Source: Paramecium tetraurelia (lineage: Eukaryota). From it: a stretch of 64,000 nt of DNA. The translations under genes and the position numbers were made by a program. Shown here piece after piece: positions 1 through 28,666 of the stretch. Numbering within the stretch: position 1 is the first letter of the stretch; each line of letters starts with the position of its first letter. Location: the NCBI GenBank assembly GCA_000165425.1, contig CT867987.1:1-64000 (forward strand), in the 5' to 3' direction. Below the pieces are notes generated by a model. The model was given only the letters and a program-made list of their open reading frames with translations. It did no database searches and was not told where the DNA came from.

Positions 1-1851
1 TCTAGCAATAGAAAAAAATCCAGAAGATTCACATTATTTTCATAATAAAGGTTTAAGAAAATATGGATGATATTTTAGCAGCGACATTACAGAAAATGAA
101 CAGATATGAAGAAGCTTTGGATAATTATAATTTAGCAATAGAAAAAAATCCAGAAGATTCAAAATATTTTAATAATAAAGGTTTAAGAAAATATGGATGA
201 TATTTTAGCTGTGACATTACAGAAAATGAATAGACATGAAGAAGCTTTTGATAATTATAATTTAGCAATAGAAAAAAATCCAGAAGATTCAGGGTATTAT
301 TGTCAGAAAGGTTCAATTAAAAATTGTTGATATTTTAGCTATTATTCTATATAAAATGAACAGATTTGAAGAAGCTTTAGAAAATTCTAATTTAGCAATA
401 GAAAAAAATCCAGAAGTTAATTTATATTTTTCTGTAAAAGGTTTAATTATATTTGGATGATATTTTAGCTTTTATTTTACTTGCAATGAACAGATTTGGA
501 GAATCTTTAGAAAGTTGTTTTTAAACAAATTTATAGGATCCAACAAGTTATTTTATAAAGGGTACAAATACAAAATGTATGATATTTTAGCTTATACTTT
601 ACATTTAATGAACAGATTTGAAGAAGCTTTGGATAATTATAATTTAGCAATAGAAAAAACTCCAGAAGATTCAATATATTATATTGGTAAAGGTTTAAGA
701 AAATATGGATTATATTTAGCTGCGACATTACAGAAAATGAACAGATATGAAGAAGCTTTGGATAATAATAATTTAGCAATAGAAAAAAATCCAGATGATT
801 CAAATTATTTTAATAATAAAGGTTTAAGAAAATATGGATGATATTTTAGCTGTGACATTACAAAAAATGAACAGATATGAAGAAGCTTTAGAAAATTATA
901 ATCTAGCAATAGAAAAAAATCCAGAAGATTCAAGATATTTTAATAATAAAGGTTTAAGAAAATATGGATGATATTTTAGCTGTGACATTACAAAAAATGA
1001 ACAGATATGAAGAAGCTTTAGAAAATTATAATTTAGCAATAGAAAAAAATCCAGATGATTCAAGTTATTTTAATAATAAAGGTTTAAGAAAATATGGATG
1101 ATATTTTAGCTGAGACATTACAAAAAATGAACAGATATGAAGAGGCTTTAAAAAATTTAATTTTAGCAATAAAAAAAAATCCAGAAGATTCAGATATTTT
1201 AGCTAATACTCTATGTAACTTGAACAGATTTGAAGAAGCTTTAGAAAATTATAATTTTGCAATATAAAAAAATCCAGAAGATTCAAGATATTTTAATAAT
1301 AAAGGTTTAAGTAAATATGGATGATATTTTAGCTGAGACTTTACAGAAAATGAACAGACAAGAAGAGGCTTTGGAAATTTAAAATTTAGCAATAGAAAAA
1401 AATCCAGAAGATTCAGGGTATTATTGTCATAAAGGTTCAATTAAAAATTGTTGATATTTTAGCTATTATTCTATATAAAATGAACAGATTTGAAGAAGCT
1501 TTAGAAAATTCTAATTTAGCAATAGAAAAAAATCCAGAAGTTAATTTATATTTTTCTGTAAAAGGTTTAATTATAATGGATGATATTTTAGCTTTTATTT
1601 TACTAAAAATGAACAGATTTGAAGAAGCTTTGGATAATTGTGATTTAGCATTATTCAGAAATCCAATAGATTTTGGATCTTGTTTTCTAAAAGGTACAAT
1701 TAAAATCGACGATATTTTTTAGATTTTACTCTAATAAAAATGAACAGATTTGGAGAATCTTTGGAAAATTAGAATTTAGCAATAAAACACAATCCAAAAA
1801 ATTTTGACTATTGTTATACCGAAGGTCTATTAATTTATTCATTATTTTTAG
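1..1851 (+). repeat. ~130-bp tandem repeat (102-nt exon + ~28-nt intron module)
   Basis: Intron gtttaagaaaatatggatgatattttag recurs at 51, 181, 822, 952 and 1082, with close variants at 693 and 1305; period is 130 nt. Confidence 0.95.
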
Positions 1852-1910
1852 AAATGATATTATTTGCAGTATTAAAGGCTTTAGAAATTCTAATCACCAC
1901 TTCTTTATGA
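1..1910 (+). CDS. Tandem TPR-repeat protein, 5' end outside window; about 14 TPR units, essentially one per exon
   Basis: Repeating 34-aa unit S-x-YF-x-NKA-x-TLQKMNRYEEALENYNLAIEKNPED. Exons 79-180, 209-310, 339-440, 591-692, 720-821, 850-951, 980-1081, 1333-1434, 1463-1564, 1592-1693 and 1723-1824 are each 102 nt (469-561 is 93 nt), separated by 27-29 nt phase-1 GT..AG introns. The spliced frame stays open in code 6 to TGA 1908-1910. Confidence 0.9.
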
Positions 1911-20418: not shown

Positions 20419-22656
<2,238 letters not shown>

Positions 22657-23389: not shown

Positions 23390-23510
23390 TTATTACATCT
23401 TTTATATATTTAAATATAACAATACAGAGAAAGAACATAATCGAAATTTATTAATGTATAGTAAAATTTAAAATTCTAATTAATATATCCTTTTAAATCA
23501 TTGATTCGCA

Positions 23511-25043
23511 ATGTCTTATCAAATTGAGAAGTGCCAAATTCATAATCTCGACAAACTATATATAAATTTAGAGAAGAACACTTAAGCATTCATGAAAACA
23601 GAATGCCTCTAATGTATTAAAAAGGAATCAATTAGCGTAGAAGAAATATTGATGAAATTCAAATAAATGATATCTATGCAATCAAAAGTAATTCAGAATC
23701 AACAGATAATGGTTGTCTTGTAAAAAATTGTGCAATCATCAGATTTAGCATTACATTCATTTCAACAAATGCATAAAACAATCTAAGATCAGCATGAAAA
23801 GTGGTAAAAAATACATTCATAATTCGAACAGATTTAGAAACTATCAAAATCTACTTATTACAATCAAGAAGAATTGTCTTAAATTGTAGAATTAACTCTG
23901 AATTCAAATCTTACTAATGTACCAAGTTTTGCAATAGCTTAATTAGATAATTTTCAAAAACTAACTATTAAACTTCAATAAATTAATGAGATTTTGCATT
24001 CAAATCCTCAAATAGCTAAGGTGATTCCCCAATAAGCAGCTAAATAGGAAGAATAATAATTATTATAACCCGTATAAAAAGGTGGTACTGATTAAAAAAA
24101 GGATTTCGAACAATTATCTTAATTTTAAACTAATATCACTGTGTACGCAATTGCTTTTAGTTTTGATAATTCTAAAATTGTAATTGGAGGAGGAAATTAT
24201 AATTAAATTTAAAATAAGAATTTAATGGTTTTGAATTTATCTGGCGACAGTAAATTGTAGAGTGAAACCATTTTATATGGTCATTCTAAGAGAGTTACAG
24301 CAATCTGTTATAGCAAGAACGAGCATTTTTTTGTCTCTGGAAGTCTAGATAGTACATTGAGGTTGTGGAGATATGAAATCAAAAATTAAAATTGGGACTG
24401 CATTAAATAATTGAATAAACACACCTCAACTGTCTTAGGATTAGCTATTAGTAATTATGATAACTTAATAATATCATGTGGACATGATTCTAAAATATTT
24501 ATTTGGAAAAATAGCAATCAAATTTGGTAGGAATCTCAGACTATATCTGAACATATAGCTGCTGTAAATAGTATAAGTTTATCAGATGATAATCATTTAT
24601 TAGCTTCAGGAAGTGAAGATACAAAAGTGTATATTTGGAAAAATGAAAATAATATTTTTAGTAAGTTAAGTCAAATCGATGTTCCTAGTTCAAGTTTTAT
24701 TTATTCTGTTCATTTCATTAAATACCATTCACTTATAGTGGGTACATTCGGCGGTAACATATCGATATGGTAAATTAATGAAGATAATAATCAATTATGT
24801 TATGAAAATAATCCAAATTTTGGATACATAAAGAAAATAGTATATAATTAGAATCAATCATTGATGATTACAAAATGTGAACATAGAACAATTATGTGGA
24901 AAATTATAAACAACGAAAAAATTGAGTAGATTAAAGATCAGGAAGGTGAATACTTAGGAATAGGATTATCACAAGGTCCATCAATAATTGCTATGTTTAA
25001 TTGTGAAAAAAAAGCACTTGAGTTGCTTTAATGTAATGTATGA
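23511..25043 (+). CDS. WD40-repeat protein with N-terminal Cys/His and coiled-coil region
   Basis: Intronless 511-codon code-6 frame; GHSKRVTAICYS..SGSLDSTLRLW, HTSTVLGL..SCGHDSKIFIW and HIAAVNSI..ASGSEDTKVYIW. Confidence 0.88.
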
Positions 25044-27037: not shown

Positions 27038-28666
27038 TCAAAATTAATTCTTTTTTGGTAAAATCGAGTCCTCTGAATCGAGATTATAAACAATCCCAAG
27101 AACCCCATTATTCATTCCATAATATCTCCATTTGGGATCATACTCATCAGGGATCTTAAATCTTAAATCAAAAGGACCAGATTTTCTCTCTTACTTGATA
27201 TAAGTTGCTTTGTTTGTATACATCGAGATCTTTTTATGTCCTCGAACAATGGTAGAAACATTCTACCTATAGATTTCTACTTCCTCAAGTGATACACCTG
27301 GCAAATCGATAAGGATTATATATTGAGTTCCTTGGATAATATCGATCTAGGGTTCATATTCCTCACCTTCCTCATTGTCAATATCTACAGGTGTAGACAT
27401 CAGTTTAGCTGTGGAAATATTTTAAGTGAATTTGGGGGAGGTTGCTTATTACTTGACGATTCTTTTTTCATTTGGTAGATGCGTATCTTAAATGGTTAGT
27501 TTGATTTGCTTTTTCAAGAGAGTACTAATTTTTAATTCGCAAACTTCAACAATGTCATCATATTTTAGTGTTTTCTTTTGATGAGGCACGACAACCAATT
27601 TCAACCAATATTTGAGAAGACTATAAGTCCAAGGATTAATGCTCTTGCCCAAATCAGAGTTGTCATTTACAATACATATGTGTCTACTCGTTTCTGTGTT
27701 GAACCACAGAACAGACTTTTCTTCCAATTGATTTGTGAAAGGATTCATTGCTTCAACAGTAGACTTCTATATATTTCCTTCTAAGATTTTTTCAATTTAT
27801 ACTTACCAAACATGCTGAATCAGATTTGGATTTGTAATATCTTTAAGATTGTGGATTACTATAATTTCCTTAAATTGTTTGAGAGAGGTGCTTAATTTAC
27901 GAGCTAATTAATCTAAATATCTAACTTCAATGCTTGTGAAATCATTGACAACGCAAATGAAATAGTCAGTTAATTCGAATGATATCTCCAGGATTGCAGT
28001 TTCAATTTATTATTTCTCTTTTAAATTCTTAAGATTCTCAGGTGCATAACTACCTGCTGTATCTATCAACACAAATGAATTATTTTTGTCAACAATGCAT
28101 TGTTTGAAACTGATGCCTTTGGTTGTTATTTTGGATCCTGTGGGGAGATTTTGATTGGTTAATTGATTTAGAATATGGGTTTTCCCTTTGTCATACAAAC
28201 CAAGCACTGCAACTCTAGCTCCCTTCAGTTCATTGTTGTTCACCAACAACTTGAAATATTGGATTAACAACTACCTTCCAAGACGAACTCATATTGATAT
28301 CCATCACTAGGTCATAAATTTGGGTATCAATTATGTTGTACTCTTGGATTGATGGTTTTTGATCATTAGTTATAATATTGGGTATTTCATTGCTTTTCCC
28401 CAGAATTTGGGGATTGTTCAGTTATCCAATAATGCTTAAGGTTTCTTCGCATCTGATTTTCAGTTCATAATGCAAAGCTTCATAAAGATCAAAAAATTCA
28501 TTTATTGACTGCATCTTCCTAAACATCTCAGCAAAAGTTTCCAGCAGATCCAAATTCTCCTTTAACAGATTTCCCAAGATCTATAGACAACTCCGGAATG
28601 CATCTTAGTCCTTAATTACATCAATTCCTTTACTAAATTAATATCACCCTCCTATGGAGAACTCAT
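27038..28666 (-). CDS. P-loop GTPase fused to a C-terminal HSP20/alpha-crystallin-like domain
   Basis: VAVLGLYDKGKT (G1), TTKGIS (G2), LIDTAG (G3) and IHNLKD (G4-like). C-terminus EPQIDII..YIILIDLPGV..VRGHKK..ERKSGPFDLRFKIP..MNNGVLGI is typical of an alpha-crystallin domain. Small introns lie in the 5' part. Confidence 0.8.

Follow-up and report, generated by a model that had tools for sequence, protein, structure and literature searches.

The tetratricopeptide repeat (TPR)-motif family of Paramecium tetraurelia is a large family of unknown function which is thought to mediate protein-protein interaction, and its genes are reported to be composed of 'TPR coding exons', each carrying an internal eliminated sequence (IES) at its 5' end, with up to 10 IESs per kb (Vitali, Hagen and Catania 2019, PMC6771405). 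Variable excision of these IESs as a possible source of TPR protein diversification has been put forward as a hypothesis in a preprint (10.1101/448316). In another ciliate, Tetrahymena, tens of thousands of leucine-rich repeat (LRR) exons of exactly 90 bp have been described together with introns that are in phase 2 in more than 98% of cases; these arrays have been attributed to the clonal expansion of an exon-intron unit, and TPR is among the expanded species-specific domains (Xiong et al. 2019, PMC6564038). The repeat arrays of the brown alga Ectocarpus, found in NB-ARC-TPR and LRR-ROCO genes, undergo exon gain and loss and shuffling, with positive selection reported on the repeat exons, and an immune role has been proposed for them (Zambounis et al. 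2012, PMC3341825). In fungal NOD-like receptors (NLRs), the TPRs are homogenised and the sites under selection lie on their concave face (Dyrka et al. 2014, PMC4986451). The locus described here occupies positions 1-1910 (+ strand, ciliate code) of a 64,000-nt stretch of P. tetraurelia DNA, contig CT867987.1, hereafter called the window, and constitutes the 3' end of a TPR gene whose array continues upstream of the window edge. It probably belongs to a Paramecium (tetraurelia-type) macronuclear gene of the large TPR family, built from an amplified exon-intron module and encoding a groove-binding product. The analysis further suggests that the predicted binding face of this product changes faster than silent sites do.

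The array shows a 130-nt period over positions 3-1201 (9.3 copies, 82% matches) and again over 1193-1803, as detected by Tandem Repeats Finder, and the coding module of approximately 130 bp consists of a 102-nt exon followed by an intron of 27-29 nt. Fourteen GT..AG introns, all within this size range, are present in positions 1-1910, and each of the 14 is inserted after the first base of TPR codon 8 (GCN, Ala), i.e. in phase 1. Exactly 102 nt is also the length of 11 of the 13 internal exons, the others measuring 93 nt (469-561) and 195 nt (1110-1304), so that the arrangement recognised in the original prediction, one 102-nt exon per TPR with a phase-1 intron always in codon 8, is largely borne out. 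Introns of 27-29 nt are ordinary for P. tetraurelia, in which the mean intron length is 25 nt (PMC8997360), and a crude census of tiny introns across the window gave no size peak. Following splicing, the frame remains open for 506 codons under genetic code 6 and terminates at a TGA stop (1908-1910); the other two spliced frames contain a stop in nearly every unit. The 102-nt exons are symmetric (phase 1-1) and whole-exon gain or loss is therefore frame-neutral, which is the sense in which the array is modular, as had been anticipated.

The 195-nt exon corresponds to 93 + 102 nt, a loss of 37 nt having taken nine exon bases and most of the intron; the former 3' end of that intron now codes for Asp-Ile-Leu-Ala, part of helix A of a 31-residue repeat, and this boundary, between units 9 and 10, is the sole repeat boundary without an intron. 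Both exon length changes are multiples of three, whereas the introns vary in length from 27 to 29 nt. For 11 of the 14 introns, retention would bring in a TGA within 6-16 codons. The other three, all of 27 nt (693-719, 1565-1591 and 1825-1851), are stop-free and would add nine residues in frame; the first of these differs from the common 28-nt type by exactly two changes, the loss of one T and a G-to-T substitution inside the TGA, which together give it a stop-free, in-frame length. The intron at 1825-1851 is a candidate only, as the frame is open there in either the spliced or the unspliced form.

The repeats are readily recognised as TPRs. Pfam TPR_1 (PF00515) matches the 64-residue fused exon with 41.3 bits against a cut-off of 27.8 (E=1.1e-10), and the signature residues recur along the array, with A8 in 13 of the 14 units, A20 in 12, A27 in 13 and P32 in all 14. 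Twelve units are 34 residues long and two are 31 residues long, and K7, L11, N15, R16, E19 and P32 are fixed throughout. Variation is concentrated elsewhere, the highest entropies being found at position 2 (3.03 bits), position 9 (2.70), position 5 (2.28), position 24 (2.27), position 6 (2.13) and position 12 (2.12). Position 2 is occupied by nine different residues in 13 units (G three times, L and R twice each, and H, K, I, N, S and D once each), and position 9 by seven residues in 14 units (V and F three times each, A, I and E twice each, and Y and N once each). The residues first listed for position 9 match this inventory; the corresponding list for position 2 (H, K, G, I, N, R, S) captured the variability and fell short of L and D. 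The repeats are on average 62% identical to one another (81% within the youngest clade), and 9 of the 91 possible pairs reach 85% or more. Two units are strongly degenerate, with 29-38% and 44-53% identity to most others, and units 4 and 13 share 59%.

Comparison with TPRs at large places these variable positions in context. TPRs in general vary most at positions 2, 5, 9, 12, 13, 33 and 34, all on the concave face (Magliery and Regan, PMC1261162), and the contacts between HOP and its peptide are made via positions 2, 5, 6, 9, 12 and 13 (PMC1261162). As the hypervariable positions of the array are those which vary in TPRs at large, the location of the variation is generic and does not single out this gene, and it is only the rate of change relative to silent sites, not its location, that suggests diversifying selection. 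This rate was assessed on codons chosen a priori as concave-face sites (TPR positions 2, 5, 9, 12 and 13), the counts being drawn from 14 repeats of one gene by parsimony, on a neighbour-joining tree whose assumptions are violated by recombination, and with very AT-rich silent sites. Fitch changes per column amounted to 2.80 at codon positions 1+2 of the concave-face sites, as compared with 1.03 at codon positions 1+2 of other codons, 0.93 at other third positions, 0.83 in intron interiors and 0.31 at intron edges. Codon-wise counting on the tree gave 34.5 nonsynonymous changes over 12.0 sites (2.86 per site) for the five concave-face codons and 20.5 synonymous changes over 18.6 sites (1.10 per site) for the whole exon, a ratio of approximately 2.6 (binomial P=6e-4; P=3e-5 against intron interiors). 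Nonsynonymous changes were over-dispersed across codons (index 2.1, P=2e-4), and 65 of 278,256 possible five-codon sets reached the concave-face sum (permutation P=2e-4). An even spread of variation over codons, with dN/dS of 1 or below at positions 2, 5 and 9, had been named beforehand as the outcome that would speak against a diversified binding face; the variation found is uneven and exceeds the silent rate at the five sites taken together. It is suggested that the concave face may be under diversifying selection, a modest and statistically fragile signal, and the new element of this analysis.

The introns had been described as near-invariant, with several of them identical. Five introns are indeed identical (51-78, 181-208, 822-849, 952-979 and 1082-1109), and those at 311-338 and 1435-1462 form a second identical set. 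Across the array, intron pairs differ at up to 11 columns, and overall intron diversity, 0.14 for all columns and 0.17-0.19 for internal columns, is close to the exon synonymous diversity of 0.21, so that the identity of several introns stands and their near-invariance as a class does not. The last ten intron bases (GATATTTTAG) are invariant in all 13 aligned introns and are preceded by G in 12 of them and by T in intron 6, and the first six bases vary only at positions 3 and 4. With an invariant 3' end and a near-fixed 5' end, constraint extends over roughly half the length of each intron. The five units that share one intron sequence vary at 19 of 102 exon columns and at 0 of 28 intron columns, a comparison biased by the fact that the group was picked by intron identity. 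In the youngest clade, seven units grouped by their whole-unit sequence, variation affects 3 of 28 intron columns as compared with 7 synonymous changes over approximately 18 sites (Fisher P=0.03). The near-invariance is confined to this young subset, and recent duplication together with splice-signal constraint accounts for the pattern.

Evidence of sequence movement within the array is provided by a block of 223 bp present at 259-481 and 1383-1604, the two copies of which differ at 3 of 223 columns (98.7% identity). In the flanks, 9 of the 50 preceding columns differ and the following sequence diverges strongly, and the block ends within exons, near codon 25 and codon 12. More generally, the units sort into types, and the intron type travels with its flanking half-exons. 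Sequence moves within the 130-bp lattice through unequal recombination or gene conversion driven by homology, and not, as the breakpoints inside exons show, through exon shuffling via introns. Of the reshuffling that had been envisaged, unequal crossover or gene conversion is upheld by the 223-bp block, whereas the swapping of exons at introns is contradicted by its breakpoints. The symmetry of phase guarantees only that register-preserving events remain in frame.

Taken together, these features would be explained if tandem duplication, unequal recombination and gene conversion had amplified and homogenised a 130-bp module within the array, with a probable exchange of modules between paralogues. 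The spliced product is predicted to be a TPR superhelix of at least 15 repeats ending in a short C-terminal helix, in which the framework residues (K7, L11, N15, R16, E19 and P32, and nearly always A8, A20 and A27) are kept, and the helix-A residues lining the concave groove differ from repeat to repeat, amino-acid change there apparently outpacing silent change. Judging from the sequence, such a product would most likely bind a protein or a peptide along its groove, each repeat setting part of the specificity.

RNA and DNA evidence bearing on this gene is available in the form of assembled contigs of public runs, which break inside the array and give neither expression level nor isoforms; runs X17, X18 and X20 are of RNA type and come from three studies, and X1 is a DNA run. 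The predicted junction at the end of exon 12 is present in X18 and X17, where a contig of each run links the final 17 bases of that exon to 1592-1634 without mismatch. The words at this junction are common to paralogues, so that splicing of this kind of unit is demonstrated, not necessarily of the copy in the window. At 1292, an X20 RNA contig of a paralogous unit runs from the exon end into the start of the next exon, whereas the DNA run X1 continues with GT. A joint from 1432 to 1201, found in all three RNA-type runs, represents an exon-type order absent from the window and shows that the exon type lying downstream of the fused-exon deletion is preceded elsewhere in the family by a normal splice junction. 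Since such junctions do not exist in the window, the TPR family is multi-copy, with paralogues that are transcribed and spliced in the predicted manner; the window copy may likewise be expressed. X20 additionally contains the unspliced pieces 792-852, 953-1007 and 1405-1478, indicating the presence of DNA or pre-mRNA. Exon skipping, proposed originally as one source of diversity, found no supporting joint among the contigs compared with the array. A joint from 1284 to 1475 in X17, considered as a skip of 190, carries 32 other letters and corresponds to a paralogous unit.

The same contigs bear on the integrity of the assembly. The order and number of units in 1-1910 could in principle stem from the collapse of a longer or different array, given that the array runs off the window edge, that short-read contigs break throughout it and that 63 of 103 X1 pieces fit two places. 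Such an artefact is highly improbable, as at least half of the sampled words occur in 16 of the 24 listed runs, most of which belong to different studies, and unit-specific junctions (357-451, 424-601, 1119-1222, 1265-1411 and 1610-2078) recur without mismatch in contigs of X1. The summed depth of X1 contigs reaches 509 in the array as compared with approximately 18-21 in the unique flank, a figure not used as copy number. One X1 DNA contig (depth 15.8 against the same flank) joins 469-470 to 91 with 38 extra letters; read by hand, it represents a paralogous exon into which a TA-bounded sequence of 28 nt is inserted at the Leu-11 codon, 11 bases from the exon start. Removal of the insert restores the usual A-A-T-L-Q-K-M-N-R frame, and a TA is present at the Leu-11 codon in all 13 exon starts of the window. 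The position of the insert agrees with that described for IESs in the TPR exons of P. tetraurelia (PMC6771405).

Several observations weigh against a working gene whose binding face is under selection. The ratio of 2.6 is indicative only, since it derives from a sample of recombining repeats, from parsimony and from AT-rich silent sites. In the remaining 29 codons, nonsynonymous and synonymous changes per site are 1.01 and 0.96 (omega approximately 0.9; pairwise pN/pS 0.92), the pairwise pN/pS of the whole exon is 1.05, and a framework omega of this order is odd, being unusually relaxed for a working protein. The RNA words that match the array lie in parts shared with paralogues, and no contig was found over the unique 3' end (1654-2600) in X17, X18 or X20, a region which X1 covers; this hints weakly at a lack of expression of the window copy. 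Among proteins of approximately 110-2000 residues in a collection of 5.8 billion, in which the P. tetraurelia proteome is present (as judged by the helicase match), the fused exon is absent (2 weak matches among 71 candidates) and the C-terminal 61 residues gave 0 matches among 31 candidates. These points could be read as the signs of a decaying or silent copy, that is, a recent duplicate array no longer under selection which inherited its site pattern from functional ancestors, and the two strongly degenerate units, the intron-loss fusion and the 9-nt deletion would fit such a history. A copy of this kind is nevertheless rather unlikely, because the 506-codon frame is intact, all 14 introns keep GT..AG and the invariant 3' end, and exon lengths have changed only by multiples of three while intron lengths drifted. 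Furthermore, the framework of the youngest clade is under purifying selection, with 0.21 nonsynonymous as compared with 0.39 synonymous changes per site (ratio approximately 0.5). The contrast in framework omega between the whole array and this clade may reflect old degenerate units, silent divergence suppressed by gene conversion, or relaxed constraint.

A HMMER scan returned 10,581 proteins at E<=1e-3. The closest relatives, with 55-62% identity, are P. tetraurelia and P. octaurelia proteins, mostly named 'tetratricopeptide repeat protein' or uncharacterised, and one close relative record also bears the UniRef name O-GlcNAc transferase, SPINDLY. The printed sequences of the closest relatives contain insertions of 9-10 residues exactly between K7 and A8, which seem to be read-through introns of 27-30 nt and would make the intron site family-wide. 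In the public P. tetraurelia TPR models P0004 and P0012, odd insertions at K7/A8 occur in several repeats together with garbled stretches, which look like unspliced introns of 27-30 nt and frame errors in the gene models. None of the four closest relatives (P0004, P0012, P0026 and P0038) contains a NACHT, NB-ARC or other non-TPR Pfam domain at E<=1e-5, and in the N-terminal parts of P0004, P0012 and P0038 nothing reaches the Pfam cut-off even at E<=1. The term 'immune-like' applied in the original prediction is thus not sustained by the closest relatives, which lack a NOD-type domain, the gene's own N-terminus lying outside the window. Protein P0002, with 38% identity to the fused exon and with AAA_16/AAA_22/ATPase_2 and TPR in a precomputed Pfam list, was set aside as a relative because it shares the general TPR consensus only, and the same applies to distant matches bearing caspase, CHAT, ART and AAA_16 domains. 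The N-terminal module of P0004 has no similarity to the WD40 gene at 23505-25043 (best E=0.22).

It may also be asked whether the family serves as a recognition repertoire of the immune or allorecognition type, in which cassettes, possibly with one IES per repeat, diversify by exon skipping, regulated recombination or variable DNA elimination. The nonsynonymous excess at the concave face, the symmetric exons and a multi-copy family with other unit orders in other contigs would be in keeping with this, as would the high IES density of TPR genes, for which a use in diversification has been hypothesised (10.1101/448316), and the precedents of Ectocarpus NB-ARC-TPR genes (PMC3341825) and fungal NLRs (PMC4986451). 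This is improbable in view of the closest Paramecium relatives, which are without a NOD-type or effector domain, and of the breakpoints, which fall inside exons and not at introns; moreover, retention of an insert or intron of 28 nt disrupts the reading frame instead of yielding protein variants, the variable positions vary in all TPRs (PMC1261162), and just 9 of 91 repeat pairs reach the 85% identity that defines the fungal class. A further elaboration is to regard each repeat as a three-layer cassette, comprising a 102-nt exon, a phase-1 intron and a germline IES, such that germline recombination and somatic elimination or splicing would yield diversified groove-binding receptors selected at positions 2, 5, 9, 12 and 13. 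It is more doubtful still; if true, it would give ciliates an equivalent of the repeat-cassette systems of recognition. Readings that invoke immunity, exon skipping or somatic diversification are speculation, and an amplified TPR module with a groove-binding product is retained as the probable interpretation of the locus, the features of which are listed in Table 1.

Table 1. Coordinates of exons, introns and duplicated blocks in the 3' part of the TPR gene (positions in the window).
Feature	Positions	Strand	Length (nt)	Remarks
Exon, 3' part	1..50	+		TPR exon cut by window edge
Intron 1	51..78	+	28	phase 1; type A (identical to introns 2, 7, 8, 9); TGA in frame if retained
Exon	79..180	+	102	
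Intron 2	181..208	+	28	type A
Exon	209..310	+	102	
Intron 3	311..338	+	28	identical to intron 11
Exon	339..440	+	102	
Intron 4	441..468	+	28	
Exon	469..561	+	93	3 codons lost in frame after P32; most degenerate repeat
Intron 5	562..590	+	29	
Exon	591..692	+	102	
Intron 6	693..719	+	27	multiple of 3; stop-free if retained
Exon	720..821	+	102	
Intron 7	822..849	+	28	type A
Exon	850..951	+	102	
Intron 8	952..979	+	28	type A
Exon	980..1081	+	102	
Intron 9	1082..1109	+	28	type A
Fused exon	1110..1304	+	195	93+102; Pfam TPR_1; same DNA in X1 and X20 contigs
Intron 10	1305..1332	+	28	1 difference from type A
Exon	1333..1434	+	102	
Intron 11	1435..1462	+	28	identical to intron 3
Exon	1463..1564	+	102	
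Intron 12	1565..1591	+	27	spliced junction in X18 and X17 contigs (gene itself or identical paralogous unit)
Exon	1592..1693	+	102	
Intron 13	1694..1722	+	29	
Exon	1723..1824	+	102	degenerate last full repeat
Candidate intron 14	1825..1851	+	27	same codon and phase
Last exon	1852..1910	+		hydrophobic C-terminal helix-like tail and TGA stop
223-bp block, copy 1	259..481	+		1.7 units; both ends within exons; 3/223 columns differ from copy 2
223-bp block, copy 2	1383..1604	+		

The window in its entirety consists of nuclear ciliate DNA. Its G+C content is 28.6% (18,276/64,000), and the long open reading frames (ORFs) with clear Pfam domains, including a DEAD-box helicase, a glycogen-branching-type enzyme, a trehalose-phosphate synthase, PUF and WD40, are open only under code 6, in which TAA and TAG encode Gln. 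The helicase ORF (20419-22338) is 100% identical to a protein whose source is named as macronuclear Paramecium tetraurelia. The ORF at 27038-28288 (minus strand) has an uncommon pairing of domains, a small GTPase (MMR_HSR1, E=1e-10) together with HSP20/alpha-crystallin (E=6e-8) at the C-terminus. No further copies of the TPR unit were found in the window, the best blastn and tblastn matches beyond 1853 having E=0.002 and E=1.1, respectively.

With regard to the systems described to date, the locus is a further member of the described and rapidly expanding Paramecium TPR family and of a known kind of exon-per-repeat array. Like the P. tetraurelia TPR-motif genes (PMC6771405), it has one TPR per coding exon, and its nearest database proteins are members of that family. 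The relevant passages of that paper centre on germline IESs and contain no intron phase, 102-nt exon length or site-specific selection; the window DNA is macronuclear, in which the IES content of the locus is not visible. A literature search, with subscription journals outside its coverage, returned no paper on selection, intron phase or exon shuffling in Paramecium TPR arrays. The Tetrahymena LRR arrays resemble the window array in belonging to a ciliate and in being tandem series of exons of one length with a bias to one intron phase, but they differ in repeat (LRR versus TPR), exon length (90 versus 102 bp) and phase (2 versus 1), and are an analogue of which the window array is not a member; as the LRR expansion is dated after the Tetrahymena-Paramecium split, the two are of independent origin (PMC6564038).

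The Ectocarpus NB-ARC-TPR and LRR-ROCO genes share with the window gene one repeat per exon and frame-neutral exons, whereas their exons encode 42 residues (TPR plus linker) as compared with 34 here, their introns are long and hold dead exons as compared with introns of 27-29 nt, and they possess NB-ARC, the window gene being seen without its 5' part (PMC3341825). The fungal class is defined by NACHT or NB-ARC together with a repeat identity of at least 85%, and the window array, with the mean of 62% given above, falls outside it; fungal NLR repeats also differ in not being encoded one per exon (PMC4986451). The locus mainly documents the expansion and homogenisation of a 130-bp exon-intron module in a genome with 25-nt introns, and shows that recombination in such arrays ignores exon borders. 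Should the excess of change on the binding face hold family-wide, Paramecium would join brown algae and fungi as organisms with modular, diversified TPR arrays, and the targets recognised by such arrays could then be sought in a ciliate amenable to genetics.

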